The position numbers were made by a program, and so were the translations under genes. This document shows, piece after piece, positions 9,571-29,152 of a DNA stretch of 64,000 nucleotides (the first letter of the stretch is position 1; every line of letters begins with the position of its first letter). Source of the stretch: an uncultured archaeon (lineage in GTDB: Archaea > Aenigmatarchaeota > Aenigmatarchaeia > Aenigmatarchaeales > JAHLMS01); NCBI GenBank assembly GCA_964353775.1, contig CAYGWB010000002.1, forward strand, positions 69,185-133,184. Direction: 5' to 3'. The notes under the pieces are model-generated. The model had not been told where the DNA came from, ran no database searches, and saw only the letters and a program-made list of their open reading frames with translations.

Positions 9571-9575
9571 GACAT

Positions 9576-10070: not shown

Positions 10071-10087
10071 ATATAACACTGTTATAT
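10071..10087. repeat. 17-bp palindrome ATATAACA-C-TGTTATAT (copy 1 of the TATAACA-N-TGTTATA family)
   Basis: Perfect dyad, about 40 bp upstream of the ligT start and just right of the CGTGAA array. Confidence 0.7.
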
Positions 10088-10125
10088 TCCTTAAACTTTA
10101 AATAAAACCTAAGCCAAGAATCTAC

Positions 10126-10674
10126 ATGCGCACGTTCATTGCTGTCGAGGTCTCCGAAGCCTTGAAGCCCAAAATTCTGGCGATTCAGAAGAAAATCGAG
10201 GCTAGCGGAGCGGACATAAAGCTCGTCGAGCCTGAGAACATCCATTACAACCTCAAATTCATAGGCGAAATAGATGATCGGACAGTAGAAAAGACAAAAA
10301 AGGCACTCTCCGAAATATCCTTTCCTGCATTTGACGTCCATATAGCCGGCTTAGGAGCTTTCCCTAGCAAAACCTATATCCGCGTGGTCTGGCTAGGCTG
10401 TCGCCAAGGGACACAGGAACTGACTGCCCTGGCTTCCAGCGTAGAGGAGGCGCTTGCCGGGATAGTCCCGAAGGACGAAAGGCCTTTCACACCTCACCTA
10501 ACGCTCGGTCGTGTAAGCGGAGTAAAAGACAAAGAAGCACTGTCAAAGCTCATGCACGATCTTGAGAACGCTGACATTGGTAAATTCCGCGTTGACAAGC
10601 TCGTATTATTCCAGTCGCAGCTGTCTCCAAAAGGACCTGCGTACATGCCGATACTGACGGTCAACTTGAAGTAG
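10126..10674 (+). CDS. thpR: RNA 2',3'-cyclic phosphodiesterase / 2'-5' RNA ligase (LigT/ThpR, 2H family)
   Basis: Two H-x-(T/N)-x motifs (HYNLKF and HLTLGRV); 182 aa. Confidence 0.75.
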   Translation: MRTFIAVEVSEALKPKILAIQKKIEASGADIKLVEPENIHYNLKFIGEIDDRTVEKTKKALSEISFPAFDVHIAGLGAFPSKTYIRVVWLGCRQGTQELTALASSVEEALAGIVPKDERPFTPHLTLGRVSGVKDKEALSKLMHDLENADIGKFRVDKLVLFQSQLSPKGPAYMPILTVNLK

Positions 10675-11149
10675 AGCGTATTTTGCGTTTAACCTTTTCT
10701 TCCTTTAGGTCCATTAGCCATATTTCATCGGCTTTTTGCATAATACGCCCGATTTTAAGCGATTTATCATATTCTGCACAAATAATTATTCTTCCAAGCG
10801 ATTTTACGGCCTCAATATTCTTGTATATATGCTTCGATGAACTATTCCAACCATCATGATAGTGGCATTCTACAAAGATTGGCCGGCGCTTCCTAATAAC
10901 AATCACGTCTGGCCTGAATTTATGATGTTTGATCCTCTTCTCGATAAGAATCTGTTCTTTTTTGAAGCCCAATCTGTTGAATTCTTTTGCGGCTATCTCT
11001 TTCATCTTCTTGTGTCCGAAGGCCTCATTTTTTATTGTAAACGGTTTGAGAAGCGCCTGATCAGGAGCAAGACCTAATCTTTCATTCTTGATTCTATATA
11101 CCTCTTTTATCGCTTTAATCATCTGATTAAGCGTTTCGTCGTTATTCAT
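10661..11149 (-). CDS. hypothetical protein with a PD-(D/E)xK / Hjc-like nuclease-fold signature (possibly non-canonical)
   Basis: The layout LGF...RPDVIVIR...IFVECHYH resembles the Hjc/restriction-endonuclease core, but the lysine of E-x-K is replaced. The gene is markedly lower in GC than its surroundings. Confidence 0.45.
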   Translation of the reverse strand: MNNDETLNQMIKAIKEVYRIKNERLGLAPDQALLKPFTIKNEAFGHKKMKEIAAKEFNRLGFKKEQILIEKRIKHHKFRPDVIVIRKRRPIFVECHYHDGWNSSSKHIYKNIEAVKSLGRIIICAEYDKSLKIGRIMQKADEIWLMDLKEEKVKRKIRSTSS

Positions 11150-11487
11150 TTGTCCACCTCACGTGGGCTGAAAGCTGTCTGGATAGGCGTTTCCTTGACG
11201 TTTTTAATCAATTCCATGGCTTTCAGAAAACCGCTGAGCTTGATTCCTGGTTTTAGCTTTACCAAGCGTAGTCTGATGGACGGGTCGATATGCGTTTCCT
11301 CTATTGCTGCCGCCAAGTATTTGTCCAGATACCAGCGGACAGTTGCTTCATGAATACCGGTCTGGCGGGCTATGAAAGCTACATGGACCCAGTCATTTCT
11401 TGTAGCAAGAACTGCCCAAATTTTAGTTATTTTTGCGTGGTCCGGGCCTTTGAATGTTGTTCTATCCCGTTTTATTGCATTTTTCAT
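11146..11487 (-). CDS. winged-helix DNA-binding protein
   Basis: 113 aa. Overlaps the downstream nuclease-like gene by 4 bp (ATGA), so the two are probably co-transcribed. Low GC. Confidence 0.5.
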   Translation of the reverse strand: MKNAIKRDRTTFKGPDHAKITKIWAVLATRNDWVHVAFIARQTGIHEATVRWYLDKYLAAAIEETHIDPSIRLRLVKLKPGIKLSGFLKAMELIKNVKETPIQTAFSPREVDK

Positions 11488-11613
11488 TAGTCTATTACTA
11501 AGCTAGTAGTATTTATATCTTAATGTCATAGATGCTCTTTTTAGTCGCTTATAATCCAAAACAAGCAGTTTTGCAGGCTTTCAATATTTATCACACTCAC
11601 GTTGTGCGTGACT

Positions 11614-11628
11614 ATAACAGTGTTATAT
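11614..11628. repeat. 15-bp palindrome TATAACA-G-TGTTATA (copy 2)
   Basis: Perfect dyad. Immediately preceded by a TCACG-N5-CGTGA inverted repeat at 11597-11611. Confidence 0.7.
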
Positions 11629-12428
11629 CAGTGGCCGACGCTCGCGTAGTTCTTCATCCCGTATTTCCAAGAAGCGTAAGCTATGGCCAAAAGCACTACG
11701 CCGACAATCGGCGTCGCATAGGCGTAAGGCATCCACTGAGTGTTCTGGAAAAAGAACTGTGACGGGTAGAAACTGACAAATCCTATCGGCAATATGTATG
11801 TCAGTATCCAGATCATTGTCATGCTGTAGATATCTATGGGATATTCCGCGAAGCGTATCGCGCTCCAGAATAGTTCCATTAGAGAACGCACTGTCGTCAC
11901 CCAGAAGGCCATCGAACTGATGAAAAGCGTTATGGAAAAAATCACTAGCACGGAACCGGACATAAGAGCTACCAGTGCTAGTAACAGCTGCGGCGTCCAC
12001 ACGATACCGAGCTTGGCGGAAGAATAAATCAACAGCATGATGCCGGCGGCTATATCCCCAAACCCGTCATCGTCTATGTTCCGCATCATTACCAGCGCGA
12101 GCGTGTTCAACGGACGGAGCATGTACCTGTCCAGATCGCCCCTTCGGATAAGACGGTCCATCGAATTGGGCGAACAGCCCGTAAGAAAAACGTGCCATAT
12201 CCCTCCGGCCAGCGCGACAAATCCGAACATGAAAAGCAGCTGGTTGAAGCTCCAGCCGTTCAGCGAAGGTATGTGCTGGAACACAGCCCAGAAGAAAACT
12301 ATGGTTGTCACATTCGTCAGAAAAATGGCGACTATGCCTATTATGAAATCGAACCTTCCCTCGGCCCAGGTCTGGATGTTGAGCTTTATGAACTGAAGAT
12401 AGTTCCTTAGATAGAATCTCAGACGCAT
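11628..12428 (-). CDS. ABC-2 family transporter permease
   Basis: 266 aa, about 6 transmembrane helices, in an operon with a second permease and an ATPase. Confidence 0.75.
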   Translation of the reverse strand: MRLRFYLRNYLQFIKLNIQTWAEGRFDFIIGIVAIFLTNVTTIVFFWAVFQHIPSLNGWSFNQLLFMFGFVALAGGIWHVFLTGCSPNSMDRLIRRGDLDRYMLRPLNTLALVMMRNIDDDGFGDIAAGIMLLIYSSAKLGIVWTPQLLLALVALMSGSVLVIFSITLFISSMAFWVTTVRSLMELFWSAIRFAEYPIDIYSMTMIWILTYILPIGFVSFYPSQFFFQNTQWMPYAYATPIVGVVLLAIAYASWKYGMKNYASVGH

Positions 12429-13220
12429 TCAACCACCCTGAACCACTACCCTCTTTATCGATTTTTGCCACAAAACGTAAGCGATCACGAACATCGCCCC
12501 TATCCAGAAGAACTGTATAAGTATTCCGGACCACATCGCGGCTCCAGTGATCGTTCCGGTGTAAATCAGCAGGGGTGTGGAGAATATCGCCTGGAAGGGA
12601 AGCATGTTCAGTATGTTCTGCGACCACAGCGGAAAGAAGGCGATCGGAACGATCGCGCCCGATGCCAGTTCGGCTATTATAATCCTGGAGAGCCGCATGC
12701 CCCAGATGTAACCGGCTGTCCAGAAGGCCCACATGGCCGTGATGAAGACCATCAGATAGTTGATCACGTAGCCGAGCAGCAGGCTGAAGAAGAACACTGC
12801 TGATGCCGGACCGGCTATGCTCATGAAAATGAATGCGAAAAGAACGACGGGCGCTTTCGTAACAAGCCAGCTAAGGACGTCGCCTGTATCCCTGGCGAAG
12901 CAGAGGAGCGGATAGCTGAGCGGCTTTATCAGCGCACTGGCTATCGAGCCCGTCTTGACCTCTTCCTCGACCCAATACTCGGTGTTCGGGTTGATGAAGG
13001 AACGCATGATGACCGAGATCGCGGTATATGTGATCATCATCGTGAACGTGAAGCCGCCTATTGCCGGTTCGGGCGACGATTTGTAGACTGCAGCCCAGAT
13101 GAACCAGAGAACGGCCAGCTGGATGAAAGGATTCACGACCCCGACCAGGAAATCGAGGCGATAGGTGAGCTGCTCCTTAAGACGGACCATGGCTATGGCT
13201 GCATAAGGGCCGATCCTCAT
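12429..13220 (-). CDS. ABC-2 family transporter permease
   Basis: 263 aa, hydrophobic. Its start overlaps the stop of the ATPase gene. Confidence 0.75.
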   Translation of the reverse strand: MRIGPYAAIAMVRLKEQLTYRLDFLVGVVNPFIQLAVLWFIWAAVYKSSPEPAIGGFTFTMMITYTAISVIMRSFINPNTEYWVEEEVKTGSIASALIKPLSYPLLCFARDTGDVLSWLVTKAPVVLFAFIFMSIAGPASAVFFFSLLLGYVINYLMVFITAMWAFWTAGYIWGMRLSRIIIAELASGAIVPIAFFPLWSQNILNMLPFQAIFSTPLLIYTGTITGAAMWSGILIQFFWIGAMFVIAYVLWQKSIKRVVVQGG

Positions 13221-14209
13221 CAGACACCCTCTCTGTAGATCTTCCTTATGGTCTCCTCTATCGAAGGTTCTTCGGTCGCGATGTCATCGACCTTGTACTT
13301 GCCCAGGACGTGCCTTATCACGTCGGCCACGCTGGTCTTCTTGATATTTATGTTGATAACGGCACGGTCGCCTTCCCTGCTCACGATCTTGGCTCCGCTA
13401 GGCAGGGATATTCGCCCGGGCGATGGCTCCTTGAAATCGACTACCAGGGCGCGCTGCGTTGCCACACGCTGCCTGAACTTGGACGTAAGTCCGTCGTAGA
13501 TTATGCCGCCCTTGTCGATTATGATCGTGCGCGGACAGAGCTCCTCGATGTCGCCCATGTCGTGCGTCGTGAGGATGATTGTCATTCCCTTCTTGTTCTG
13601 CTCCTTCAGGAACTCGCGGATGCGGAACTTCGCCTCGACGTCCAGGCCGATGGTCGGCTCGTCAAGGAATACTATCTTCGGGTTGTGCAGCAACGAGGCC
13701 GCCAGGTCGCAGCGCATGCGCTCGCCTAGCGAGAGCTTCCGAACAGGCTGGTCCAGGTACTTGCCCAGGTCCAGGACTTCCGAAAAGCGTCGCATGTTCT
13801 CGTTGTATGTCTTAAGCGGAACGGAGTAGATGTGCCTGAGCAGGTCGAAGGTGTCCTTCACTGGCAGGTCCCACCAGAGCTGCGTGCGCTGGCCGAAGAC
13901 CACGCCGACGTTCTGCGCGTACTCCTGCCTGCTCTCGTACGGAACGACGCCCATGGCCGTTACCTTGCCTGAAGACGGCGTCAATATCCCGGTCATTATC
14001 TTTATCATCGTCGATTTACCAGCGCCGTTCGGTCCGATCATCCCGACGAACTCGCCTTCCTTGATCTCGAAGGAGACGCCGTTCAAGGCGCGGATCACCT
14101 TATACTTGCGGCTGAGGAGAGTCGCCAGGCTAGCCTTGAGCCCGGCCTTCTTCTTCAGCGTCCGGAACTCCTTTTTCACGTTTTTTACTTCGATTATGTT
14201 TTCGGGCAT
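13220..14209 (-). CDS. ABC transporter ATP-binding protein
   Basis: Walker A GPNGAGKST, signature LSLGERMR, Walker B IVFLDEPT. Confidence 0.9.
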   Translation of the reverse strand: MPENIIEVKNVKKEFRTLKKKAGLKASLATLLSRKYKVIRALNGVSFEIKEGEFVGMIGPNGAGKSTMIKIMTGILTPSSGKVTAMGVVPYESRQEYAQNVGVVFGQRTQLWWDLPVKDTFDLLRHIYSVPLKTYNENMRRFSEVLDLGKYLDQPVRKLSLGERMRCDLAASLLHNPKIVFLDEPTIGLDVEAKFRIREFLKEQNKKGMTIILTTHDMGDIEELCPRTIIIDKGGIIYDGLTSKFRQRVATQRALVVDFKEPSPGRISLPSGAKIVSREGDRAVININIKKTSVADVIRHVLGKYKVDDIATEEPSIEETIRKIYREGV

Positions 14210-14472
14210 TCACTCGCCTCTTTTAGTTCATTTTTCGTGGGTCTGATTTATAAGGTTGCCAGACCAAATTTTTTTATGGCGCTCGTCTGCTGCCACTGTA
14301 AGAGCACAAACCTCAGATTCGTACGCTCGTTCTCCGACATCGAAAACGGCGATATGTCGGCGCTATGTCTTGATTGTGGTGCAGAATTCTAGGGTCTAGC
14401 CAAATCTCCTATGCAAACATGGGTTTACTCATACTAGACACCGATAGAAATGGGTTTTCAAGGTATTTATTT

Positions 14473-15786
14473 CTACGTTTTGTAGCGATTGAAGAAGTCT
14501 GACAAAAGACCGATCCTCTCGTCAACCTTGTTCCAGCGTTCGATGAGCTTTCCTGTCTTCTTATGCAGCTCATTGTACTTGTCTATCGTACTTTTGTCTT
14601 TCTCAAATGTTTCGAGCGCTGTCATGAACTCTGATACGCCCGGACCGTCGAGCTTGAGGCCGGCGTGCTTCAGTCCTGAAGCGAGAATGAACTCGTTTCC
14701 TTTCGCGTAATTAACCATGCAGTCGCGGAAGTATCTTATGTTTTCCTGCGTTATCTCGCGCATCATCTGCATAATTTTCAGGTGTGCCCTTGCGTTCTTG
14801 TCGCCGTTCAGATGATCGTAGATGCTCGATATCTGATCGAGCGGCCTGTACTTTTCGCTCCTTAGCTCGTCATCGATTTCAACGGTCTGTTTTTCGACAT
14901 CCCTTTTCTCTTTTTCAGCCCGTTCCAGCTGATTCCTGTTCCTAGCGGTGAGATGATTGAGGACCACGATGGTGTCGCGGGCCGCTGCTGGCAGCATGTT
15001 CTGATAATTCAGCTTCAATTTAGATGTCATCTCGTCCTTGGCCTGACGTTCGTGCAGCGCATTGACGCCCTTTATTTGTTTAGAAACTTCCGCGCATTCC
15101 GCTTCAAGCATTTTGTATTCCGCCTCGACCGTGCCGTAATGTTTCGGGAATTTCGACACTTTATTTGCGATGTCGTTATACGTTTCGTATTTTTCTTTTG
15201 CGCTTCTGAAAAGCGATTCCACATACTCTTTCTCTTCGTCGGGTATGACGTCCGCCATCTTCGAACGCATGCTCTCCATCACAGAACCGGTGAAATCACC
15301 AAAATTTACGGCTGCTACGGCGGCGCTGTTCTCGATGGCTCTCACCTGGTTTCGGCCGAAGCCTTTCATGGCCTTGCCCGGTGCTTTTGCGATGCCCTTT
15401 CTGGTCCTGCGGCTCCAGTAAAGTATCTCTTTTAAAATTCTCACCGATTCCTGTTTGCTTGATACCATGCCGCGCGGGTTCCCTGATGCCATAAAGACCC
15501 TTGCGCCGACTTCCGTGTAACTCTTGTGGACTAACCCTTCGAAGTCAACATTGTTCTTGTTTGCGACACCATTGAATTTCTCATACGCTGACCGATAGAA
15601 ATTGATCATATCATGGTAAACGGCGGACTGGCGTTCCATATATTCGTCGTTGACAGCCTTCAGGACAACCATAGTCTTGCGTTTTTGTTCCTTCTTTCCA
15701 TTGAGCTCCGAGAGCATATTCTCAAGCTGTGCGATTTCAGGCGTTCCATTGGCCTGAATTTCAGGATGTTCTGCGTCGGAAGACAT
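14473..15786 (-). CDS. coiled-coil-rich hypothetical protein (437 aa)
   Basis: Very K/E/R-rich with long predicted helices and no recognisable catalytic motif. It sits upstream of, and on the same strand as, the ABC-2 exporter. Confidence 0.55.
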   Translation of the reverse strand: MSSDAEHPEIQANGTPEIAQLENMLSELNGKKEQKRKTMVVLKAVNDEYMERQSAVYHDMINFYRSAYEKFNGVANKNNVDFEGLVHKSYTEVGARVFMASGNPRGMVSSKQESVRILKEILYWSRRTRKGIAKAPGKAMKGFGRNQVRAIENSAAVAAVNFGDFTGSVMESMRSKMADVIPDEEKEYVESLFRSAKEKYETYNDIANKVSKFPKHYGTVEAEYKMLEAECAEVSKQIKGVNALHERQAKDEMTSKLKLNYQNMLPAAARDTIVVLNHLTARNRNQLERAEKEKRDVEKQTVEIDDELRSEKYRPLDQISSIYDHLNGDKNARAHLKIMQMMREITQENIRYFRDCMVNYAKGNEFILASGLKHAGLKLDGPGVSEFMTALETFEKDKSTIDKYNELHKKTGKLIERWNKVDERIGLLSDFFNRYKT

Positions 15787-15811
15787 GAGTTCAGATTCGA
15801 AGCAAAAGGAT

Positions 15812-17518
15812 TTAAGCTCTTGCGATGACGGCCATGCCGCGCTTGAACTGCTTCATCTCTTCGGAGTTCAGCAGCGCTTGGCCGACAGAAATGACGTTCT
15901 TCTTGCTAGTGACGGCGACCTCTTCGCCCGGAAATATTTGGTCCTTGGTGCCCACGAACTTGACGAAAACGGAGCCGCCCTTCGCGACTATCTTTGCGAC
16001 ATCAGGGTCGGCTATCGCGACGTGTTTCATCTTATTTCCCAGCATCTTTGCGCCATCGACCGTCGGCAGGAAGAAACCGTCGGATGGTCGGATTGTTCCG
16101 AGCAAGGACTTGCGACCGGTTGTCCAGACGCGGCGGATCCTGCCCGTGCGTTTGGATATCTCCAGTTCGGCCTTTGCAAATTTCTTGGCCGAACCCTTGC
16201 CGAACTCGTAGTCCAATGTGGCAGCGAGTATGTCCTTCGTCTTCGCTTTGACCTTCGGCTCGGGCAGACCAGGAAGGATTGACTGACCGAAGGGATAGAC
16301 AGATTTCAGCCCGACTGGAATCTTTCCGAACGGCGGTTTTGTGAAATATTTTTTTGACTTTACGCGCTTCCTCCATTCGAGAGCTCGGAAAATCTCCGGC
16401 CTGTGGCCGCTCTCCTCGCCTGACCAGAGCAGAGCGGACTTCTTGCACACCCTGTCGAAGTTCGCCAGCCACTTTCCGTGGCGTGCGAGCGACCAGTGAA
16501 GCCCGGCCAGCAGGGCTGGGTGGCTGCGTGCGCGTTCCTGCACGAGTTCCCACAGCCACTGGCCGCGGATTGCCGTGCGAATCGTTCTCAACTCTTGGAA
16601 CGTAACATACAGATTATGTTTTGCTAAGAACTTGACGCGTTCAGGCTCTGCAAGCTTCTTTATCTCTGCTGGGTCCGCCTTCGAGCAGACCGGGCAGGAA
16701 CATGGGAACTCGACGAGGTCGAAAAGGTTGAGCGTACCGCTGGTTGTCAGGTAGCCGTCACGATAGGCGGCGAGCGAGTACATCGCGGAGTCGAACATGT
16801 CGCAGCCGAGAGCTGTCAGAAACGCGAACGCCATCGGGTGCCCAGCGCCGAAGGCGTGGACCGGCGTTGCGAACGGCAGGTTCTTCTTGCATGTGATTAT
16901 GATTTCCGCGAGCTCATCGAAGCGGTAAGCTTCCATCAGCGGAACTATGCCGCCGATGGCAAAGATGTCAGGCTTGATTTTGGCGATCTGCTTGCATGCG
17001 GTCGCGCGCTGGTCGAGATACATGCCACCCTGGATCGGGCCGACAAGACAGCGGTCCGGAACGGCCTTCCTGGCGGCTGCTGTCCTGCGGACGGTCTCGG
17101 CCAGTTTCTTCTTCGCGACCGAAGCCGGATCGTCCGGCAACGTGAACAGGTCGAGCGGCGTGATCACGTCCGAGCCGATCGCATGCTGGAACTTCACAAT
17201 TTCCTTCGGGTCGATGTCTGACACGCCCTGGCTGAACATCTGGAACGTCCCGGAGTCCGTGTAGATCGGCCCGGGCCAGTTCAGAAGCTTGTGCAGGCCC
17301 TGTTCGAGCGCCTTCTTCCTGAGCTCCTCATGCTTGTTGATGATGTAAGAATTGGTGATGATTATCTCGGCGCCGAACTCCTTGCGGAGCTCAGAAGGGG
17401 TAACGGGCATCTTGTTGGGGTTTATGACAATCGCGATGTTGGGCGTGCGGACGATATGTTTGCCGACCGACCATTTGCAGATACGCCCGCCTGCGTCGCG
17501 GTCGATAAGTTCGAGCAT
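15812..17518 (-). CDS. tgtA: archaeosine tRNA-guanine transglycosylase (TgtA) with C-terminal PUA domain
   Basis: Catalytic YTDSGTFQ and PLDLF motifs, zinc site CSCPVC...H, and a 568-aa length with a C-terminal PUA-like segment. Confidence 0.9.
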   Translation of the reverse strand: MLELIDRDAGGRICKWSVGKHIVRTPNIAIVINPNKMPVTPSELRKEFGAEIIITNSYIINKHEELRKKALEQGLHKLLNWPGPIYTDSGTFQMFSQGVSDIDPKEIVKFQHAIGSDVITPLDLFTLPDDPASVAKKKLAETVRRTAAARKAVPDRCLVGPIQGGMYLDQRATACKQIAKIKPDIFAIGGIVPLMEAYRFDELAEIIITCKKNLPFATPVHAFGAGHPMAFAFLTALGCDMFDSAMYSLAAYRDGYLTTSGTLNLFDLVEFPCSCPVCSKADPAEIKKLAEPERVKFLAKHNLYVTFQELRTIRTAIRGQWLWELVQERARSHPALLAGLHWSLARHGKWLANFDRVCKKSALLWSGEESGHRPEIFRALEWRKRVKSKKYFTKPPFGKIPVGLKSVYPFGQSILPGLPEPKVKAKTKDILAATLDYEFGKGSAKKFAKAELEISKRTGRIRRVWTTGRKSLLGTIRPSDGFFLPTVDGAKMLGNKMKHVAIADPDVAKIVAKGGSVFVKFVGTKDQIFPGEEVAVTSKKNVISVGQALLNSEEMKQFKRGMAVIARA

Positions 17519-17543
17519 AATCAGTATCTTGTTCGGCCGTATT

Positions 17544-18266: not shown

Positions 18267-18302
18267 AATAGCTATTCGGTTCTGTGATTTAAGTTTAAAT
18301 AC

Positions 18303-20079: not shown

Positions 20080-20083
20080 TAAG

Positions 20084-20296: not shown

Positions 20297-20322
20297 GTCT
20301 GAGAAAGGGGATAATTATGTAT

Positions 20323-20547
20323 TTAAGCTTTTGTCGACGGGACGGCGCCGTGTATTTTTTCCCTGAGATGCTCGCGCACCTGGTCGCTGTTGAGGTTCTT
20401 CTGCTCACAAAAGAAGTCGTACATGATGCCGGACGAGTGGCATTTCATGTTGTCTATCTCGCATCTGTGTGGGTGGTAAGCCGGACACAGTGACACGTTC
20501 TGAGCCGTCTGTTCTGGTCGCAGCCTATACTCGTCCGTGTTTCCCAT
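20323..20547 (-). CDS. small Cys/His-rich hypothetical protein (about 74 aa)
   Basis: Possible metal-binding spacing C-x3-H-x-H-x-C...C-H...C. Has a TATA-like TTTTTTATA and GAGG upstream. Confidence 0.35.
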   Translation of the reverse strand: MGNTDEYRLRPEQTAQNVSLCPAYHPHRCEIDNMKCHSSGIMYDFFCEQKNLNSDQVREHLREKIHGAVPSTKA

Positions 20548-20623
20548 CAATCCGCCTCAGAAATAATTGGTATAAAAAACTTATATTTAGATACTTTCTG
20601 CCATTGAAAGTGTTTAAATCCTT

Positions 20624-21562: not shown

Positions 21563-22850
21563 TCGGCATGCCGTTCTTCATTACAAGTCTTCGGTCCGCC
21601 CACATGTTGCCGTTCCTTCCTTTCATGATCTTGATCATATCGAGGTGTGAGCTGGCGATGTTCTTTCCGTGGTAGGCGCCGGTGTTGTTTCCGATGGCGA
21701 TGTGAATCGAGCCGAATATCTTCTCGTCGACGATCGTCTCGCCGATGAAGGCGGCCGCCGGGTTCGTTCCGATGCCCAGTTCTGCTATGCGGTCCTTCTC
21801 GCCGGTGTTGCTGTCCAAGAACTTCTTGAACTTTTTCGCTCCGTCTCCGGGAGCTGAGTACTTGACAACTTTGCCGTCCTTGAACGTGATCTTAAGCTTC
21901 TTTACGAATCCGTAGCCATGCGTCACGACGTAATCGAATACTATCGTTCCGTTGGCGGAATACTCGAGCGGAGCAAGAAAGACCTCGCCGTCCGGGATGT
22001 TGAGACCGATGTCTCCGTTGCGCAGATCGTGCGCATCAATCACTCCGTCCGCCAGAAGCACAGGTCTGCCCTTGATAGAAAACGTCAGGTTTGTGCCGTC
22101 ATCGGATTTAATTGTTATTTTGTCCGTGTTCGCAAGCGCCTTTTTGTAATATTTGCACAGTTGCCTGACCTTCGGAGTGAACGTCTCGGCTATCGAGTCC
22201 AAGAAGACCTTCCTGTATTTTGCCGGGCTCACGAGGTATTCCTTCTTGTGGACGGGCCAGCCGAAGAGGCACCAACGCATCTTTCGCTTGTCCATTATCT
22301 GGTGCAGTTTGCTCGAGCCTGGCGCTCCGAGCTTCTCCTTCACCTCAAGACCGCGCACCCAGTTGTCGTCCTCATCACCGCCAAGGAAAATTCTGGCGTC
22401 GAACGTCTGGGCCGTGAGCTTTGCGGAAAGCGGCAGTTCTGCCGCGGTATCCCACGGCATCAGTTTCAGGTGCGCCCTGCTGTCGGCCGAACTATACGGT
22501 ATTGTCGCTATGTGAACGCCCCTTTTCCACGCCTCCTGTTTTATCAGGCGGGCCAGCTCGACGCATTCCGGCTCATTATCACTATATGTCATCCGGACGA
22601 GCTCGCCTACGGTCTTCTTGACGAAATATTTCTTCCCGCGCTTCACGAGCAGAGGGCCGTAGTCCGTGTCAGCCAGCTTTTGGAGCAGCTTCTTGTTCTT
22701 AAATCTGGTCGGGTCGATGTATTTTTTGGAAACTATCTTATCGACCGCCTTGCCGTACCGTTTGCGTGCCAGTGCAATCCCAGGATTCGGCTTGCGACCG
22801 ACAGGTATTGACTTGGCGAGAAGGTCGTGCGCGACTGTTTTCAAATTCAT
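21552..22850 (-). CDS. aminopeptidase, M29 (AmpS/PepS) family
   Basis: 432 aa. The C-terminal IAELGIGTNP...DEKIFGSIHIAIGNN...HLD block is typical of thermophilic M29 aminopeptidases. Confidence 0.7.
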   Translation of the reverse strand: MNLKTVAHDLLAKSIPVGRKPNPGIALARKRYGKAVDKIVSKKYIDPTRFKNKKLLQKLADTDYGPLLVKRGKKYFVKKTVGELVRMTYSDNEPECVELARLIKQEAWKRGVHIATIPYSSADSRAHLKLMPWDTAAELPLSAKLTAQTFDARIFLGGDEDDNWVRGLEVKEKLGAPGSSKLHQIMDKRKMRWCLFGWPVHKKEYLVSPAKYRKVFLDSIAETFTPKVRQLCKYYKKALANTDKITIKSDDGTNLTFSIKGRPVLLADGVIDAHDLRNGDIGLNIPDGEVFLAPLEYSANGTIVFDYVVTHGYGFVKKLKITFKDGKVVKYSAPGDGAKKFKKFLDSNTGEKDRIAELGIGTNPAAAFIGETIVDEKIFGSIHIAIGNNTGAYHGKNIASSHLDMIKIMKGRNGNMWADRRLVMKNGMPIKS

Positions 22851-23887
22851 GGAATCAACCTACGGGGATAGTTCGTTAGTAGTTTGAGGCCTTTCCTTGT
22901 TAATAAAAACATGTCCTCTACGCGTATACCGCCCCAGCCGCTGAAATAGAGGCCCGGCTCGACGGTGAAAATCATGCCAGACTTCAGCCTGTCCTTGGAC
23001 CGCTTGGAAAGGGACGGACTCTCGTGAATCTCAACACCCGTGCCGTGCCCAAGGCTGTGCGTGAACGCCTTGCCCAGACCGAGCTTGCGCGCGACGTCAC
23101 GTGCTGCGCGGTCGACCGCGGCAGCCTGCGCTCCGACCTTCACTTTCTTCAGCGCGGCCGCCCGCATGGCTAGAACAGTGTTGTAGACCTTTCTTTCCTT
23201 CTGGCCGGGCTTCAGACAGAACGTTCTCGTCATGTCAGAACAGAGCCCTTCGACCTGCGCGCCGATGTCGATTATCACCAGGTCCTTCTGTCCGATCTTC
23301 CGGTCGCTGACACCCATATGAGGGCTCGCGCATCTGTCGCCCGAGGCGACTATGCTGTCGAAAGAATATCGGTCGGCTCCGGCGCGGCGCATCGTCGATT
23401 CTGCGACCGCCGCCAGCTGGCGCTCCGTGACGCCAGGTCTGATCGCCTTGGCGACCGCCTTCATACCGGAAACAACTATGTTCGCGGCCTTGATCGTCTT
23501 TTTGATCTCGCCGCATGTTTTCACGCTCCGCATGCGTGTGAAGATGTCTGACGCTGGAACGAGCTTTCCTTTTATAATTTTTTGTATTCTTTTCATCATG
23601 CTGACAGAAATCTCATCATCCTCATAGCCTATGCGGCTCCTGCCGGTCATCTTTGCGACCGTGCGCCACCATTTGTGGCTTATTTTCAATAAGAAAGTTT
23701 TAGGTATCCTGGCATGCTCGAACTCCGTGCTGATTATGGTCGGCTCTCCTCTTGCAGGGATGACCAGGAGCGCCCCCAGCTCCCATTCGCCGGTGAGCCA
23801 CAGGAGATTCGGTTTGCTGCTCACAATAAGAAAATCGAGCTTGCGGGCTCGCAGCGCGCGCTGCAGCTCGGAAATGCGGTTGTCCAT
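22847..23887 (-). CDS. Xaa-Pro aminopeptidase / M24 family metallopeptidase
   Basis: Metal ligand blocks DIGAQVEG, HSLGHGTGVEIHE and VEPGLY. Confidence 0.85.
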   Translation of the reverse strand: MDNRISELQRALRARKLDFLIVSSKPNLLWLTGEWELGALLVIPARGEPTIISTEFEHARIPKTFLLKISHKWWRTVAKMTGRSRIGYEDDEISVSMMKRIQKIIKGKLVPASDIFTRMRSVKTCGEIKKTIKAANIVVSGMKAVAKAIRPGVTERQLAAVAESTMRRAGADRYSFDSIVASGDRCASPHMGVSDRKIGQKDLVIIDIGAQVEGLCSDMTRTFCLKPGQKERKVYNTVLAMRAAALKKVKVGAQAAAVDRAARDVARKLGLGKAFTHSLGHGTGVEIHESPSLSKRSKDRLKSGMIFTVEPGLYFSGWGGIRVEDMFLLTRKGLKLLTNYPRRLIP

Positions 23888-23892
23888 GCTGA

Positions 23893-23920
23893 TTTAATCT
23901 AGTGGCCAAAAGAAAAAGGC
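23893..23920 (-). terminator. Perfect 6-bp-stem hairpin GTGGCC-A(6)GA(5)-GGCCAC between the dnaG stop and the M24 start
   Basis: Stem-loop followed by a T/A-rich run. Could terminate or attenuate dnaG readthrough. Confidence 0.3.
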
Positions 23921-23925
23921 CACCG

Positions 23926-25137
23926 TCAGCTCAAATCAGCCGCCGTAACGACCTGGGTGTTCTCAGGCACGCTGCGTACGCTGCTCTTCATCGCGGCTAT
24001 CAGCTTGACTCCTCGCTGCGCGGCAAAGTTGACCAACCGTTGGTCGGCCTCACCATCCAGCACGAGTATGTCCGCTTGCAGCTCGCGCAAAGCGTTGAAG
24101 ACCTCGCGGAGCGGAACCTTGCCGATTATGTCTCCGCCTTCCTTCATCAGGTAGGCAGCTCGCGTTCCGGTCAGCTCCTCCAAGGTGCTTCTCAGCAGCT
24201 CGGCCTTGCCAGGTTCGAACTTACGGGTAGGCCTGCGCTCCTCGCGCCTTTCCGAACGTTCAGCGCGTTCCGGCCTCTCAGGGCGTTCGGGACGCTCGCC
24301 GTTCTCGGAAATCATCTTCGCCTGATCGAGCGGAACATGGTCGCGCAGGGACTTGAAGAGCTCCTTCTTGGTCAGCTCCTCGACCTCCTTGCCGCGCGGC
24401 GCGCGTGCAACGAAATCTATCTCCGAAGTGGCCATCAGCTCTTTCAAGATAAGGTCCCCGCCTCGGTCGCCGTCCAGGAAGACTGTCACTTCTTTCTGCT
24501 TGGTCAGCTCCGCAACAGCCGGCGGCACGGACGTGCCCTCGATGGCTACGACGTTCTTGATTCCGTGCTTGAGCAGATGGATGACATCTGCGCGCCCCTC
24601 GACTATGACTATGCTGTCATAGTTCTCTATTGCCGGGCCGGCCGGCAGCCCTTGCCAGCTCGTTATCTCCGCTCCACGCACGGACTCCTTCAGTTCTTCA
24701 GCAAGCTGAGCGACCTCCGGAATGCCCTCTTCGAATATCTTCGCAAGCAGTTCCTTCGCCCTTGTGACCACGTACTGTCTCTTCACCGAACGGACGTCCT
24801 CGATCTTGTCTATCAACAATCGTGAGTTCGCCGGTCCGATCCGTTCGATGGTCTCTATGCAAGCGGCTATCAGAGCCGTTTCCGTGCTGTCCAAAGAACT
24901 CGGTATCATTATCGTTCCTGAAGTCTTCCCGCCTTTCGTGTTCAACTCGACGTCTATTCGGCCTATTCGGCCGGTCCTTTGCAGTTCGCGCAGGTCCATG
25001 TCCGGTCCGAGCAGACCTTCGGTCTGTCCGAAGACGGCGCCGATCACGTCCGGCTTCTCAACCGTTCCGTCGGCCTCGAACTTCGCGAATATCGTGTATT
25101 TTGAAGCAGCCTGTGCTAGCTTCGCCATATTGATCAT
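23926..25137 (-). CDS. dnaG: DNA primase DnaG (archaeal Toprim-type)
   Basis: The archaeal DnaG N-terminus FAKFEADGTVEKPDVIGAVFGQTEGLLG plus Toprim motifs (VVIVEGRADV...DGDRGG). Confidence 0.85.
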   Translation of the reverse strand: MINMAKLAQAASKYTIFAKFEADGTVEKPDVIGAVFGQTEGLLGPDMDLRELQRTGRIGRIDVELNTKGGKTSGTIMIPSSLDSTETALIAACIETIERIGPANSRLLIDKIEDVRSVKRQYVVTRAKELLAKIFEEGIPEVAQLAEELKESVRGAEITSWQGLPAGPAIENYDSIVIVEGRADVIHLLKHGIKNVVAIEGTSVPPAVAELTKQKEVTVFLDGDRGGDLILKELMATSEIDFVARAPRGKEVEELTKKELFKSLRDHVPLDQAKMISENGERPERPERPERAERSERREERRPTRKFEPGKAELLRSTLEELTGTRAAYLMKEGGDIIGKVPLREVFNALRELQADILVLDGEADQRLVNFAAQRGVKLIAAMKSSVRSVPENTQVVTAADLS

Positions 25138-25369
25138 CTCCTTTGATTATCGTTTTCATTTTTTCACTGTCTATTTTCTTAGAAAGAGGCCCAGTCCTTA
25201 ACGCATCTGGCGTCTATATCGTATTTAGGACGCCGTACGCCCTTGCTTGCGGAATAACCCGCTTGATTATGATATGAGACTGAAAGGACCGAGCGTTCGT
25301 TGATGTAAAGGGCTCGTTCCGTACCTCTTTCTACAGATAGTTGCTTTTCACGTTATTTAAACGTATCTT

Positions 25370-25765
25370 TTAGAACTTGACGCACGTGAGCGCCATCGTG
25401 TTTATGACGCCGGGCACTTCGCGGAGAACGTCAGAAATGTAGGTGCCCACCGCACGAAAGTCCTTACCGCTGACCTTGACTACCAGATCGTACTCTCCGA
25501 ATAGCGGGGTCAACTCCTCTATATGGGCCTCCACTCCCTTAAGCGCCAAATATTCGCCGTAAAGGTTATCTCCCACAGTTTTCCGCAAAGCTTCCATACG
25601 TGTCGGATCCTTCTCCAGTTTCTGTATATTTTCCAATATTTGATAAGCCTCATGCTCTTTGGCCGGAGCAGAGGAAATGAGCACAAATGACAATGTATCG
25701 TACATCGTGGGTTCTCCGTTTTTTTCCTGTGTCTCGGGCTTCTTCGGGGTGCTTTCATTTGGCAT
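25370..25765 (-). CDS. Lrp/AsnC ligand-binding (RAM) domain protein
   Basis: C-terminal RAM-domain pattern (FVLI...YDLVVKV...PGV..T) with no N-terminal HTH. Confidence 0.55.
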   Translation of the reverse strand: MPNESTPKKPETQEKNGEPTMYDTLSFVLISSAPAKEHEAYQILENIQKLEKDPTRMEALRKTVGDNLYGEYLALKGVEAHIEELTPLFGEYDLVVKVSGKDFRAVGTYISDVLREVPGVINTMALTCVKF

Positions 25766-25810
25766 GAAAAATAACCGAGAGAAAAGGATTTAAAGGTTTA
25801 AAATCTGTTA

Positions 25811-26053
25811 TTGGCTATGGAGCGCAATGAATGGGCATCGAACGCGATTTCGTCCGTAAAGGACGTCCTGAAGGATGAGCATGACATACTCGCCAGCTAT
25901 CTCTTCCCTGTGGTATCTCCGTTGTTTCTTTGCATGGGACTATTTTCAGCCTATCGCGGAGATATGGAGAATGCGAAAATGGGGTTTGAGGTAGGCGCGG
26001 GCGCCGGTGGCTATTCTCTGATATCCAAATTGTACGGAAAAATGAGCAGATGA
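25811..26053 (+). CDS. small hypothetical (possibly membrane) protein
   Basis: 80 aa with a TATA-like TTTAAAGGTTTAAAA upstream. Confidence 0.25.
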   Translation: MAMERNEWASNAISSVKDVLKDEHDILASYLFPVVSPLFLCMGLFSAYRGDMENAKMGFEVGAGAGGYSLISKLYGKMSR

Positions 26054-26057
26054 TACT

Positions 26058-26606
26058 CTAGAGCTCGGCTGCCTCGTTCTTGCAGGCATCACAGACCCAT
26101 CGGTCGTTGATGTAATGCAGGTTCTCAGAATAGTTAGCGCACAGTTCGCAGTCGCCGGAATTGAACTCCTCTATCCCAGAACCGGGCTCTACCAAGGTTA
26201 GACGCTCGCGCAGGATCTCTATGCAAGCGGGGGCGACCCTCGCTATCTCCCGGTCGGACAGAATGCCGACCAGCTTGCCCATCTGAACGACAGGTAGACG
26301 CTCGAAGCCGTGCTTGGCCATCACTCTCGCAGCATCGGCCATGTCGTCGTCCGGCGAGCAGGTTATGACGTCGTAGGACATTATCTCCTTGATCATCATT
26401 TTGGACGCTGTCTTGTCGTCCGCCACGACCTTGTTGACTATGTCTTCCCTGGTCACGATTCCGACCGGCCTGCTGCCTTCGCAGACGACCACCATGCCGA
26501 CATCCTCGTCGCGCATGGCCTTGCTGGCCATCGTAACAGTGTCGCTCGGCTTGGCCGAAACGACCGTGCTTATCATGGCTTCCGACACTTTGATTCCAGT
26601 TGGCAT
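26058..26606 (-). CDS. CBS-domain pair protein with C-terminal zinc ribbon
   Basis: Two CBS repeats (VIT..PDD, VVQMGKLVGILSDREI) followed by CELC...CDAC. Confidence 0.8.
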   Translation of the reverse strand: MPTGIKVSEAMISTVVSAKPSDTVTMASKAMRDEDVGMVVVCEGSRPVGIVTREDIVNKVVADDKTASKMMIKEIMSYDVITCSPDDDMADAARVMAKHGFERLPVVQMGKLVGILSDREIARVAPACIEILRERLTLVEPGSGIEEFNSGDCELCANYSENLHYINDRWVCDACKNEAAEL

Positions 26607-26648
26607 GGTGAGAATATGTCACATGATTATTTAAAGGTTTTGCGCGGT

Positions 26649-27530
26649 TTACTGTTGGTCTATGATCTTTTTCGCAAGTTCTTCTTCCATTTTTTTATAG
26701 TTTTTATTGCGAAAGTATGCGTAGTCGAGCTCGGTTGACACTTCTCTTATTGTTTGGCCTTTGAATGATGTCGCTTGTGAGATATCAATCTGTTTTAAAG
26801 GCTTTTTGCATTCAATAGATGCCCTGTGAACGGCTCCGGCCGCAATTATATCTGGGGTGTGATTCTTTATCTGGGCCTCTCTTATAATCTCGCATGCCTT
26901 GTTCTGGATGTCTATTGCATCTGGCATGCCCAGTTTGATCATAATTTTAGGAACGAATGATTCTGGCGTTATCGTTCTCTGAACAGGTTTGACCAACGTT
27001 ATTATCTTTTTGTAGGCATTGAAGACGCTGCCCTTCCAAACACCCACCCCATCTCCTATTTCCCTGCCAGACATCGGCATTCCATATTCCCTGTAGGCCG
27101 CAAGGATGCTGCCGGCATAAACTTCTTTCATTCCAAGCCCGCTGCATCCTCTTTTTCTTTCGTTTTTAAATTTATTGAATATTCCTATTGCAGTCTCGAC
27201 TATGTAGTCCGGCGCATCCATTGCCGAGCATATCGATTCTATCTCGTCAGCATCTTTCTTGTGATAACCAATATCCTCATTGGCAATTTCTTCATGCATC
27301 GTCTTATGCCGCTTTTTAAGAACAGTGACATTTTTCCAATCGCTCGGCCCTACACCGTCGATAACCGAGCCCAACGGCTCCTTGTTTCCAGATTGTGGCC
27401 TTACTGCCTTATCATAGACCAAACCGCAATCCTCGCAGATGTGCTCGTCTTTGTGGTAAACTATCCTTCCGTTGCATTCACCGCACTTTTCCGATTCTGC
27501 AACGTCATCCTCGTACGTGTCCGGTGCCAT
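26649..27530 (-). CDS. tfb: transcription initiation factor IIB (TFB)
   Basis: N-terminal zinc ribbon CGEC...CEDCG and two cyclin-fold repeats, one with a GR helix. Confidence 0.9.
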   Translation of the reverse strand: MAPDTYEDDVAESEKCGECNGRIVYHKDEHICEDCGLVYDKAVRPQSGNKEPLGSVIDGVGPSDWKNVTVLKKRHKTMHEEIANEDIGYHKKDADEIESICSAMDAPDYIVETAIGIFNKFKNERKRGCSGLGMKEVYAGSILAAYREYGMPMSGREIGDGVGVWKGSVFNAYKKIITLVKPVQRTITPESFVPKIMIKLGMPDAIDIQNKACEIIREAQIKNHTPDIIAAGAVHRASIECKKPLKQIDISQATSFKGQTIREVSTELDYAYFRNKNYKKMEEELAKKIIDQQ

Positions 27531-27581
27531 GTTATTAGTAGCATGTAAAGGTTTATATACTTATCAGTAGTAATAATTATT

Positions 27582-27905
27582 ATGGCAAAATATAGCCCGC
27601 CCAACGGGGGCGACATAAAGGAGATCGACGTCGACAAGAACGAAGGCAACCTGAAAGTTGTCGTGGACGGCAGGACCATCATATATCGTAAGGACGGCGT
27701 AGAGGAAAAGACGTTCGAGGACGGGCTCCTGCGCAGCAGCCGTTTTATAGGCTACAGGGCCAGCGGTTATTCCGAAGCTTATGACAAGTACATAAGCGTT
27801 GTTGAGTCTGCCATGAAAGACTTCAGCGAAGAGGACAAGAAATTAACAGAATACGTGCTGGCGATAGTAAGAAATAAGGGCGAAATCGGCGTAAAGCTAC
27901 AATAA
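27582..27905 (+). CDS. hypothetical protein (107 aa)
   Basis: TTTATATA box about 30 bp upstream of the ATG. Confidence 0.45.
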   Translation: MAKYSPPNGGDIKEIDVDKNEGNLKVVVDGRTIIYRKDGVEEKTFEDGLLRSSRFIGYRASGYSEAYDKYISVVESAMKDFSEEDKKLTEYVLAIVRNKGEIGVKLQ

Positions 27906-27922
27906 CTTGAAGGGGTTTTGAT

Positions 27923-28204
27923 ATGGGTATCGGTAAAATGCTGTTCGGTGAAAAATTTATTGATCGCACGCCGGAAATGGAACGCCAGCAGACCGTCGAG
28001 TTCTATGAACGCGATGTTGACATGAACAATTCGGTCGTTGAGGAACTCGAAGTACTAAAACAAATTGAAAAGAAGCCTTCTTGGCATTACAGGCAGCTTG
28101 TCGATCAGTACCGTGACTTGCAGGAAGACATAAGCATAACTCGGGAAAACGCCGCAAAACAAGGCATAATTTTGCCTGATATGGAAATTCTGACTTACAG
28201 CTAA
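27923..28204 (+). CDS. hypothetical protein (93 aa)
   Basis: GAAGGGG Shine-Dalgarno upstream; probably co-transcribed with 27582..27905. Confidence 0.45.
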   Translation: MGIGKMLFGEKFIDRTPEMERQQTVEFYERDVDMNNSVVEELEVLKQIEKKPSWHYRQLVDQYRDLQEDISITRENAAKQGIILPDMEILTYS

Positions 28205-28251
28205 ATCAACACATATTTATATATTGATATTCGACAATAGATAGACTCATT

Positions 28252-28977
28252 ATGATAGACCAACAGGCGCTGGCGCGCGAGACGCTCGCCAAGCGGATCG
28301 CGGGTGAGATCGTTCTGGGTGATGATGCCGGCAAAGTGATCCAGAAGTGGAGAAACATCTTCAAGATACCGCAGCGGCGTTTGGCCGACGAGATGGGCGT
28401 AATGCCTTCGGTGATAAGCGACTATGAGAACGGCAGGCGCAAGAGCCCTGGAATAAAGGTCGTAAAGAAGATGGTTTCTGCGATGCTGAGCATGGACGAA
28501 AAGATCGGCGGAAAGGTGATAAAGGAGTTCAGCGAGTGGCCGAGCAAATTCGGCCTGTCGGAGGCCGTGCTGGACCTGAAGGAATTTTCCACACCTGTTA
28601 CTGTTAGGGACTTCTGCAAGGCCATGGACGCTGCCGTGGTCGCCAGAGAGGACCTGGCGGATAACAAACTGCACGGATACACAGTCATAGACAGCATGAA
28701 GGCGATAACCGGCATTCCGCCACTAGAGCTGGTCAAGCTGTACGGGCTGACGACAGAAAGGGCGTTAATATTTACAGGCGCACATAGCGGAAAATCCTCG
28801 ATGGTGGCAATAAAGGTGACAAACCTCAGGCCGGGCCTGGTTATACTGCACGGTGCGGAAGGGGTGGACGATTTGGCTAAAAGAATAGCGGAAATAGAAG
28901 AAATACCGCTGGCTGTCACAAGGATCAGGAACGTCGAGGACATTCTGAACGCATTAAAGAAGAGTTTCAGCGGCTAG
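28252..28977 (+). CDS. HTH (XRE-like) transcriptional regulator with C-terminal domain
   Basis: The RRLADEMGVMPSVISDYENGRR segment is a helix-turn-helix of the XRE type. Confidence 0.6.
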   Translation: MIDQQALARETLAKRIAGEIVLGDDAGKVIQKWRNIFKIPQRRLADEMGVMPSVISDYENGRRKSPGIKVVKKMVSAMLSMDEKIGGKVIKEFSEWPSKFGLSEAVLDLKEFSTPVTVRDFCKAMDAAVVAREDLADNKLHGYTVIDSMKAITGIPPLELVKLYGLTTERALIFTGAHSGKSSMVAIKVTNLRPGLVILHGAEGVDDLAKRIAEIEEIPLAVTRIRNVEDILNALKKSFSG

Positions 28978-29038
28978 CCTCCCCATCACTTCTTATAGAA
29001 CATCACTACAACAGAAAAAATACAGTTATTATTATTAT

Positions 29039-29055
29039 TTATAACATTGTTATAA
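29039..29055. repeat. 17-bp palindrome TTATAACA-T-TGTTATAA (copy 3)
   Basis: Perfect dyad in the AT-rich region upstream of orc1/cdc6. Confidence 0.7.
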
Positions 29056-29135
29056 GAAGTAAAGGTATGTTTGCTTTATTTTTCTAAAAATGTTTGCATT
29101 AGAAACATGCGGGTGTCTGCTTCCGATGGAGGGTA

Positions 29136-29152
29136 TTATAACAGTGTTATAA
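29136..29152. repeat. 17-bp palindrome TTATAACA-G-TGTTATAA (copy 4)
   Basis: Perfect dyad, 97 bp centre-to-centre from copy 3, flanking a very AT-rich stretch. Confidence 0.7.

Follow-up and report, generated by a model that had tools for sequence, protein, structure and literature searches.

The replication origin predicted upstream of orc1/cdc6 in an uncultured member of the Aenigmatarchaeota carries a short palindrome, TATAACA-N-TGTTATA, between its origin recognition boxes (ORBs). We analyzed a 64,000-nucleotide stretch of this archaeon's DNA (contig CAYGWB010000002.1, positions 69,185 to 133,184; hereafter the window), in which the palindrome occurs twice at the origin and twice at a second locus. 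Because 14 of its bases are nearly invariant, its dyad is perfect and its variants are symmetric, we infer that it is recognized by a homodimeric, sequence-specific DNA-binding protein other than Orc1/Cdc6. The palindrome is probably a docking site for a putative replication-initiation helper protein. The fuller interpretation, which we favor with some reserve, is that a dimeric DNA-binding protein other than Orc1 uses it as an accessory site of the origin, within the zone where the helicase is loaded, and again at a small number of other loci.

A perfect palindrome recurs at four intergenic sites

The exact 15-nucleotide core, TATAACANTGTTATA, which consists of 14 specified bases around a free center (consensus TATAACA-N-TGTTATA), is present four times in the 64 kb, where ~0.01 copies are expected: at 10072-10086 (copy 1), 11613-11627 (copy 2), 29040-29054 (copy 3), and 29137-29151 (copy 4). 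All four copies are intergenic, copy 2 abutting the stop codon of an ABC-2 gene at 11628. When up to three mismatches were allowed, the core had 8 matches in the window against 1.49 expected. The 17-mer with up to two mismatches was found 0.01 times on average in shuffled sequence, and none of 100 dinucleotide-preserving shuffles reached four. The exact scan and the shuffles thus bear out an initial annotation of this DNA, according to which the palindrome recurs at four intergenic sites. That annotation had also described 17-bp dyads as copies of one motif: copies 1, 3, and 4 are indeed 17-bp dyads, but the full 17-mer, TTATAACA-N-TGTTATAA, is shared by copies 3 and 4 only. Copy 1, ATATAACACTGTTATAT, is a perfect 17-bp dyad with outer bases unlike those of copies 3 and 4. 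Copy 2 is a dyad of 15 bp only, as annotated, but its coordinates had been set one base too high. Two further details held: copies 3 and 4 are 97 bp apart, start to start, with AT-rich DNA between them (29055-29092, 76% AT), a spacer that is a candidate unwinding and helicase-loading zone, and the inverted repeat TCACG-N5-CGTGA lies just before copy 2, at 11597-11611. Rfam and tRNA scans of the window detected no RNA gene, so an RNA-gene explanation was dropped.

The palindrome lies between the ORBs of a predicted origin

Copies 3 and 4 had been proposed to sit in an origin (oriC) beside the initiator gene orc1/cdc6 (29299-30501, plus strand). The Cdc6 protein contains the Pfam domains Cdc6_C, Cdc6_lid, and AAA_22 and scores 492 bits against the NCBIfam ORC1-type equivalog model, slightly below its cutoff of 501. 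The region upstream of the gene (28981-29298) has the sequence features of an archaeal oriC: a cdc6 neighbor, inverted ORBs, an AT-rich core, and a skew switch. We aligned the cdc6 intergenic region of the window with those of four relatives (relatives' loci carry L numbers throughout). A left canonical ORB, CCCCATCACTTCTTATAGAAC (28981-29001, minus strand), starts 4 bp past the stop codon of the upstream gene; it fits the inverted ORB pattern and is aligned and kept in L001, L003, L004, and L005. The canonical cdc6-proximal ORB, TTTCCACAGGAAGTCATGGGGTT (29207-29229, plus strand), is kept in all aligned relatives and is the single match in 64 kb to the strict pattern of an ORB followed by a G-string. 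The G-strings of this outer pair face outward, that of the left ORB being read as CCCC.

The two palindromes of the origin stand inside this pair. Copy 3, TATAACATTGTTATA, occupies the center of the AT-richest stretch and is invariant in the origin alignment; 39 bp separate it from the left ORB and 38 bp from the ORB-like box that follows. That ORB-like box, TTTGCATTAGAAACATGCGGGTG (29093-29115, plus strand), has a degenerate G-string and was identified by reading the sequence; its counterpart in the alignment of L001, L003, and L004 is an ORB. A mini-ORB, GCTTCCGATGGAG (29119-29131, plus strand; GTTTCCGATGGAA in L001), precedes copy 4, TATAACAGTGTTATA, by 5 bp, and L001 has a palindrome at the same offset from cdc6 (-162) as copy 4. 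AT content peaks at 87% in the interval centered on copy 3 (29010-29059) versus 50% for the whole window. The cumulative G-C (GC skew) reaches its minimum at 27.5 kb, and gene-strand bias is modest, with 72% of genes on the minus strand to the left and 54% on the plus strand to the right. Because inverted canonical ORBs, an AT-rich core, and a skew minimum are present, the prediction of a classical archaeal origin beside cdc6 is well supported, and the location proposed for copies 3 and 4 stands.

The companion proposal, that the palindrome is itself an ORB-like element, does not hold. The palindrome does not match the ORB consensus (TTCCA-N3-GGAAA, with or without the G-string) and shares no ORB sequence, and true ORBs (TTTCCA-N3-GAAA-N4-GGGGT) are found beside it in the window and in every palindrome-bearing lineage inspected. 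We take the palindrome to be an element separate from the ORBs and placed between them. Downstream of the proximal ORB, a CGTGAAG...CTTCACG inverted repeat (29232-29259) surrounds a TATA-like box, ATATATAT, and is conserved in the clade of the window (L001-L005). This segment is probably the cdc6 promoter with an operator, and it suggests that a GTGAA-binding factor controls cdc6 transcription.

The palindrome and its spacing are conserved in two phyla

We collected 80 cdc6 loci from Aenigmatarchaeota, Nanohaloarchaeota, and a few otherwise-labelled metagenome-assembled genomes (MAGs). Their Cdc6 proteins are 51-81% identical to the protein of the window, the upper figure being that of the closest relative, and these relationships assign the organism to the Aenigmatarchaeota (DPANN). 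The exact 15-mer was found directly upstream of cdc6 in 42 of the 80 loci. Upstream counts were restricted to loci in which cdc6 is preceded by 250 bp of sequence or more, 76 in all: an exact copy was present in 41, one with no more than a single mismatch in 64, and one with no more than two in 70. A comparison of cdc6 upstream regions in relatives had been suggested by the initial annotation as a check on conservation, and its outcome is positive. Across 108 palindrome sites, each specified position was at least 90% conserved, C/G positions were as invariant as A/T positions, the center was free, and the flanks were merely AT-rich.

The strict pattern found an inverted as well as a direct ORB in 16 loci, and in every one of them the palindrome lay between the two. 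The distance from the nearest palindrome end to the start of the cdc6-proximal (direct) ORB was 23-27 bp in 37 of 55 cases. Origins carry from one to four copies. Nanohaloarchaeal origins have up to three copies in tandem at a spacing of ~19 bp, the outermost ones ~25 bp from the ORB on each side, a layout that appears nearly mirror-symmetric. Five lineages (L030, L041, L051, L052, and L060) are without the palindrome, yet upstream of cdc6 they still carry boxes of the ORB type; in the three for which the pattern detected both ORBs (L030, L051, and L060), the two are ~250-320 bp apart. Because palindrome-less lineages keep ORB-type boxes at cdc6, the palindrome is best described as a clade-specific addition to a standard origin.

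L201 and several nanohaloarchaeal sites carry a symmetric double change, ACA-N-TGT to ACG-N-CGT, which keeps the dyad. The resulting TATAACG-N-CGTTATA is present in both phyla (L201 at 3348, L002 at 7147, L040 at 6728 and 8044, L047 at 5887, L067 at 6729 and 8117, and L080 upstream of cdc6), the two half-sites changing jointly, and it could reflect relaxed specificity or a paralogous factor. One Aenigmatarchaeota subgroup (L027, L048, L068, L042, L031, and L033) has a degenerate right half-site, for example TATAACAGTCTTATA. The palindrome of these six loci is enclosed by TTCC...GAAG flanks, like an ORB dyad with a widened spacer.

Copies outside the origin are few

We scanned ~1.3 Mb of cdc6-centered loci for additional copies. 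About 12 independent intergenic non-origin copies with at most one mismatch were found, roughly one per 100 kb, at offsets of 0.8-19 kb from the origin and with no clustering around it. They adjoin TATA-like boxes or gene starts. The genes concerned are PolB (L010 and L023), NAC (L034, L036, and L070), a divergent 216-aa gene and NAC on either side of one intergenic region (L023), Hjc/HTH_3 (L019), a metallophosphoesterase (L039), and ligT (the window). A coherent replication-gene regulon was considered and rejected: in the 80 loci, the upstream regions of PolB, DP1-like, NAC, Hjc, metallophosphoesterase, LigT, and HTH_3 genes mostly had no palindrome, and the matches upstream of Hjc and metallophosphoesterase genes were usually the origin copies themselves.

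Similar sequences turned up in two other settings. More than 120 IMG/VR viral contigs contain the 17-mer, some in 6-7 copies. A link to these contigs was rejected, as they have no replication or candidate-binder genes in common with the window; the sole tblastn match, to an unannotated open reading frame (ORF) of the window at 49470-50420, has 22% identity and lies in L195. Five small viral contigs (L082, L099, L109, L122, and L156; ~41-44% GC) carry this same 17-bp palindrome 6-7 times with A or T as its center, and the viral palindromes are probably an unrelated phage operator. The second setting is within large nanohaloarchaeal ORFs (622-1427 aa) upstream of cdc6, where TATAACACCGTTATA is found in L063 (1830), L065 (3270), L073 (1292), and, in a two-mismatch form, L074 (2133). 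These ORFs have no informative Pfam domains, and TATAACACCGTTATA may be a conserved coding motif (Y-N-T-V-I).

A second locus combines the palindrome with a GTGAA array

Copies 1 and 2 lie near a gene for an AAA+-lid-winged-helix ATPase (AAA+-wH; 8491-9570, minus strand; Pfam AAA_22), a protein of initiator-like architecture. Directly upstream of this gene is an array of GTGAA[C/G] hexamers (9570-10020) in both orientations, often at 11-bp spacing; 20 of them have the CGTGAA[C/G] form, and the array includes GTTCACGTGAAC palindromes. Copy 1 stands at the distal edge of the array, between the AAA+ gene and ligT (10126-10674, plus strand; 2',5' RNA ligase/phosphoesterase, Pfam LigT_PEase, E = 2.6e-30); ligT has its TATA-like box 9 bp and its ATG 54 bp downstream of this copy. 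Copy 2 is located between the ABC-2 permease gene and a two-gene cassette, which encodes a 113-aa winged helix-turn-helix (wHTH) protein and a 162-aa protein; it is 140 bp upstream of the small wHTH gene.

Relatives of this locus were obtained by scanning metagenome contigs with the AAA+ protein of the window. In all relatives with 61-80% identity, the GTGAA[C/G] array lies upstream of the AAA+ gene, with 14-23 motifs in 700 bp, and its distal edge is marked by a palindrome with 0-1 mismatches between -463 and -493, compared with -502 in the window. The position of copy 1 is kept in ~12 relatives (L203-L213, L224, L214, and, as the symmetric variant, L201). L201, the closest relative at this locus, has the variant TATAACGCCGTTATA at the same place before the same ligT TATA-like box and a second copy beyond ligT that is the counterpart of copy 2. 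A copy also separates ligT from the AAA+ gene in L214, whose AAA+ protein is 44% identical. The order of the genes around the array varies, the ligT-wHTH block being inverted among relatives, and the palindrome remains at the array edge. Because it keeps this place across relatives despite the changed gene order, copy 1 is evidently under selection, and chance repetition does not account for copies 1 and 2.

The block between copies 1 and 2 comprises ligT, a PD-(D/E)xK-like gene, and the wHTH gene, and it is inverted in the window relative to several of the relatives compared (L201, L204, L209, L212, and L225). L204 and L207 have the nuclease-like domain fused with the wHTH in one protein of 226-229 aa. 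The 162-aa protein (p162, 10661-11149) was considered as a divergent Hjc and set aside, its BLASTP matches being insignificant; a weak PD-(D/E)xK hint had E = 0.021.

We wondered whether the AAA+-wH protein is a second Orc1/Cdc6. An AlphaFold2 (AF2) model (predicted local distance difference test score, pLDDT, 81.5) has a three-domain fold made of an AAA+ base, a lid, and a C-terminal winged helix. Its best Foldseek matches in the PDB are S. solfataricus Orc1/Cdc6 (2qby_A) and A. pernix ORC2 (1w5t), but RuvB, yeast ORC/Cdc6, and MuB score close behind, so the fold is not specific to Orc1/Cdc6. Sequence profiles gave no grounds for placing the protein in that family: hhalign against Cdc6 yielded a probability of 22.6%, over the AAA+ core only, and the match to the Pfam ORC-CDC6-like family (E = 0.007) was below its cutoff. 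We thus describe the modeled protein as initiator-like in architecture and not as a member of Orc1/Cdc6.

Even where the relatives are 37-40% identical and their intergenic regions short, GTGAA motifs are found with the AAA+-wH gene, and the array and the gene together look like an initiator-plus-iteron or autoregulatory module. The remark in the initial annotation that two motif families meet at both loci agrees with the GTGAAG repeat that also surrounds the cdc6 TATA-like box; the annotation had taken this as a hint of two origins or of one regulator for both loci. The idea of a second canonical chromosomal origin at copies 1 and 2 was rejected: the strict pattern, applied to the 64 kb, found no canonical ORB near these copies, and the skew has no inflection there. 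The location of the AAA+/array module only 4-5 kb from the cdc6 origin in other genomes also counts against it.

Candidate binding proteins and neighboring genes

Two proteins encoded in the window are weak candidates for binding the palindrome. The first combines an XRE-type helix-turn-helix with a DRTGG-like domain (XRE-DRTGG; 28252-28977, plus strand; Pfam HTH_3) and is encoded immediately upstream of the origin. Its AF2 model (pLDDT 82.2) has the DRTGG-like domain at the C-terminus, and Foldseek matched it to the DRTGG protein AF1212 and to dimeric XRE operator-binding repressors, all at E ~0.01-0.1. The 25 aligned homologues are 64-88% identical, and the gene is syntenic with cdc6 in 21 loci. 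The upstream region of the XRE-DRTGG gene itself has the palindrome in one of 21 loci (L019), and no homologue was found in the nanohaloarchaeal loci examined. Two small ORFs farther upstream (27582-27905 and 27923-28204) were rejected as binders, since neither has a homologue at any relative's locus.

The second candidate is the small wHTH protein (113 aa; 11146-11487, minus strand). The palindrome is 77-92 bp upstream of its homologue in L204, L209, L212, and L225. Autoregulation of the whole family was rejected, as the upstream palindrome is confined to one subclade and distant homologues are without it. In L217, the TATA-like box of a small wHTH homologue is overlapped by TTGAACACTGTTCAA (~10253-10267), a perfect dyad that differs from the palindrome but shares its core.

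Upstream of the origin are the XRE-type gene and two genes labeled TFB-like and DnaG-like from a reading of their translations. Downstream of cdc6 are a degenerate PolD-small-subunit-like OB-fold gene (30681-31499) and a family B DNA polymerase gene (PolB, 31549-34221). The match of the OB-fold protein (272 aa) to the PolD small subunit (DP1) is confined to the N-terminal part of that subunit, and the cdc6/DP1-like/PolB cluster is syntenic across many Aenigmatarchaeota loci. Two stretches of the window, 1-1000 and 44000-54000, have a GC content of 33-44% versus ~52% elsewhere. The longer one ends by a gene for an STT3 oligosaccharyltransferase (53981-56062), and the low-GC stretches may be a surface-glycosylation or horizontally acquired island.

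Discussion

The closest precedent for an accessory site of this kind is the ucm motif of Sulfolobus and Aeropyrum. In Sulfolobus, ucm lies midway between ORB2 and ORB3 and is essential for firing (Dhanaraju et al. 2025, PMC12141716). Its mutation abolishes firing without changing Cdc6 levels, and the three Sulfolobus origins, which differ in their initiators, all contain it (PMC12141716). Its binding protein, UBP, has 111 aa, binds ucm as a monomer, and contacts MCM's N-terminal domains; it has 329 other sites, mostly intergenic, behaves as a nucleoid protein, and is reported from Sulfolobales and Desulfurococcales only (PMC12141716). By analogy, the palindrome would be ucm-like in layout without being a member of the ucm family. 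Both are short conserved motifs between inverted ORBs, in the unwinding/helicase-loading zone and apart from the initiator boxes, and both have further, mostly intergenic sites and occur at more than one initiator-linked locus. They differ in abundance, as UBP has its hundreds of sites whereas the palindrome has about one extra copy per 100 kb, and they differ in symmetry and sequence, as discussed below. If the analogy with ucm and UBP holds, a dimeric factor would sit where the helicase loads, between ORB-bound initiators, and would help MCM activation or release, or gate firing. At its few sites elsewhere, the same factor might also act as a local regulator.

Accessory sites are also a feature of bacterial origins: those of IHF and Fis at E. 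coli oriC and the CtrA boxes of Caulobacter Cori place a second protein among the initiator boxes, and the factor acts at promoters as well. These proteins and the replication machinery they serve are unrelated to those considered here. Such bacterial sites are also discussed in connection with ucm (PMC12141716).

Several observations weigh against an accessory-site function. The clade of the window has spacings of 39, 38, and 55 bp in place of the usual 25 bp, with additional ORBs interleaved, so the architecture of the origin is not rigid. The palindrome may instead have a purely transcriptional role at cdc6. Promoters orthologous to those with non-origin copies mostly have no palindrome (PolB, 3 of 45 with it; HTH_3, 1 of 21). 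The ucm probe, ATTATACAAAAG, shares only TTATA..CA with the half-site of TATAACANTGTTATA, and ucm is asymmetric and bound by a monomer whereas the palindrome is a perfect dyad. The candidate binders are weak, and both binding and origin activity are predictions. Finally, the copy counts cover only ~1.3 Mb around cdc6 genes. We considered four other explanations, which rank in likelihood as a transcriptional operator, a site for Orc1 or a paralogue, a structural element, and a centromere-like site.

The strongest of these holds that the palindrome is an ordinary operator, through which a dimeric repressor or activator controls cdc6 and a few replication and repair genes, its position in the origin being incidental. 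The non-origin copies do adjoin the TATA-like boxes of ligT, PolB, and other genes, and the palindromes 77-92 bp upstream of the small wHTH gene in four relatives would suit such a role. In L209 and four relatives, moreover, a second palindrome-like box follows the TATA-like box and precedes the ATG. The XRE-DRTGG protein, weakly similar to dimeric repressors and syntenic with cdc6, would be a candidate regulator, as would the small wHTH protein. At cdc6, however, the palindrome lies beyond the proximal ORB, at least ~60 bp upstream of the TATA-like box, and it is from the ORB, not from the promoter, that the tight distance of 23-27 bp is kept. The palindrome is missing from most orthologous promoters of PolB, HTH_3, Hjc, and NAC, and the XRE-DRTGG gene has it upstream in a single locus and no homologue in the nanohaloarchaeal loci examined. 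We therefore consider an operator unlikely, though it deserves more credence than the remaining three.

The initial annotation took the palindrome for a candidate ORB-like element; on this view Orc1/Cdc6 would bind it, either as a lineage-specific ORB occupied by two head-to-head initiators or through an Orc paralogue. The palindrome shares with ORBs and mini-ORBs its location in oriC beside cdc6, a dyad like that of the ORB core, and conservation across lineages, and in some lineages it is framed by TTCC...GAAG flanks. Sulfolobus oriC1, an ORB-containing origin, has additional palindromic sites, C2 and C3, for Cdc6 paralogues (PMC3718332), and the window encodes a second AAA+-wH protein. Yet the palindrome bears no sequence likeness to ORBs, has neither a TTCCA-N3-GGAAA match nor a G-string, and stands between the ORBs instead of flanking the AT-rich core. 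The same origins carry canonical ORBs with G-strings of the pan-archaeal consensus, and Cdc6 scores as ORC1-type. Whereas C2 and C3 are bound by Orc1/Cdc6 paralogues, the window has no clear second Orc1/Cdc6: the AAA+-wH protein is not a demonstrable member, and in distant relatives its gene tracks the GTGAA repeats and not the palindrome. Recognition by Orc1 or a paralogue thus seems improbable to us.

We see still less prospect for a protein-independent structure, in which the AT-rich dyad would be selected for melting or extrusion as a duplex-unwinding or cruciform element. The palindrome is AT at 11-13 of 15 positions and lies where the origin is richest in AT; in the nanohaloarchaeal origins, which have more GC, most of the AT-rich DNA between the ORBs comes from the palindromes, and the palindrome-less lineages have the longer inter-ORB spacer. 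Melting alone, however, does not need C/G positions that are as invariant as A/T positions, conserved copies are found outside origins, and a 7-bp stem with a 1-nucleotide loop is too short for a stable cruciform. Least credible of all is a centromere-like site, an origin-proximal dyad that loads a segregation protein as parS does for ParB: a perfect palindrome of ~16 bp, cross-phylum conservation, few copies with the best ones at the origin, and a weak AspA-like match at the C-terminus of the AAA+-wH protein (E ~0.8) would fit, but the element lies inside the origin core at a fixed distance from the ORBs that a centromere would not be expected to keep, its non-origin copies are not clustered at the origin, and no ParA/ParB or SegAB was seen among the window genes scanned, an annotation that is not exhaustive for a window that is part of a genome.

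A search of the literature for the palindrome or for DPANN origin motifs found no description. To our knowledge, no origin factors besides Orc1/Cdc6 are known outside Sulfolobales. Whether other archaeal lineages have proteins analogous to UBP has been asked by its discoverers (PMC12141716). A sharply defined 15-bp element, present in two phyla at a near-fixed distance from initiator boxes, offers a usable bait for the isolation of such a factor. The palindrome also serves better than ORBs alone as a marker by which origins in DPANN MAGs can be placed and oriented, and the analysis reveals a second conserved module, the iteron array with its AAA+-wH gene.

We advance a broader proposal only tentatively, and we doubt it more than we believe it. 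Aenigmatarchaeota and Nanohaloarchaeota might share an origin-activating factor that is a functional analogue of UBP but unrelated to it; the dyad would mark the symmetry center of the origin, at which the two MCM hexamers loaded by ORB-bound Orc1 would meet face to face, and the module of palindrome, repeats, and AAA+-wH gene would be reused at a second, replicator-like locus that is independent of Orc1. If this is true, archaeal origins would follow a general design in which a common center element is paired with interchangeable initiator boxes.

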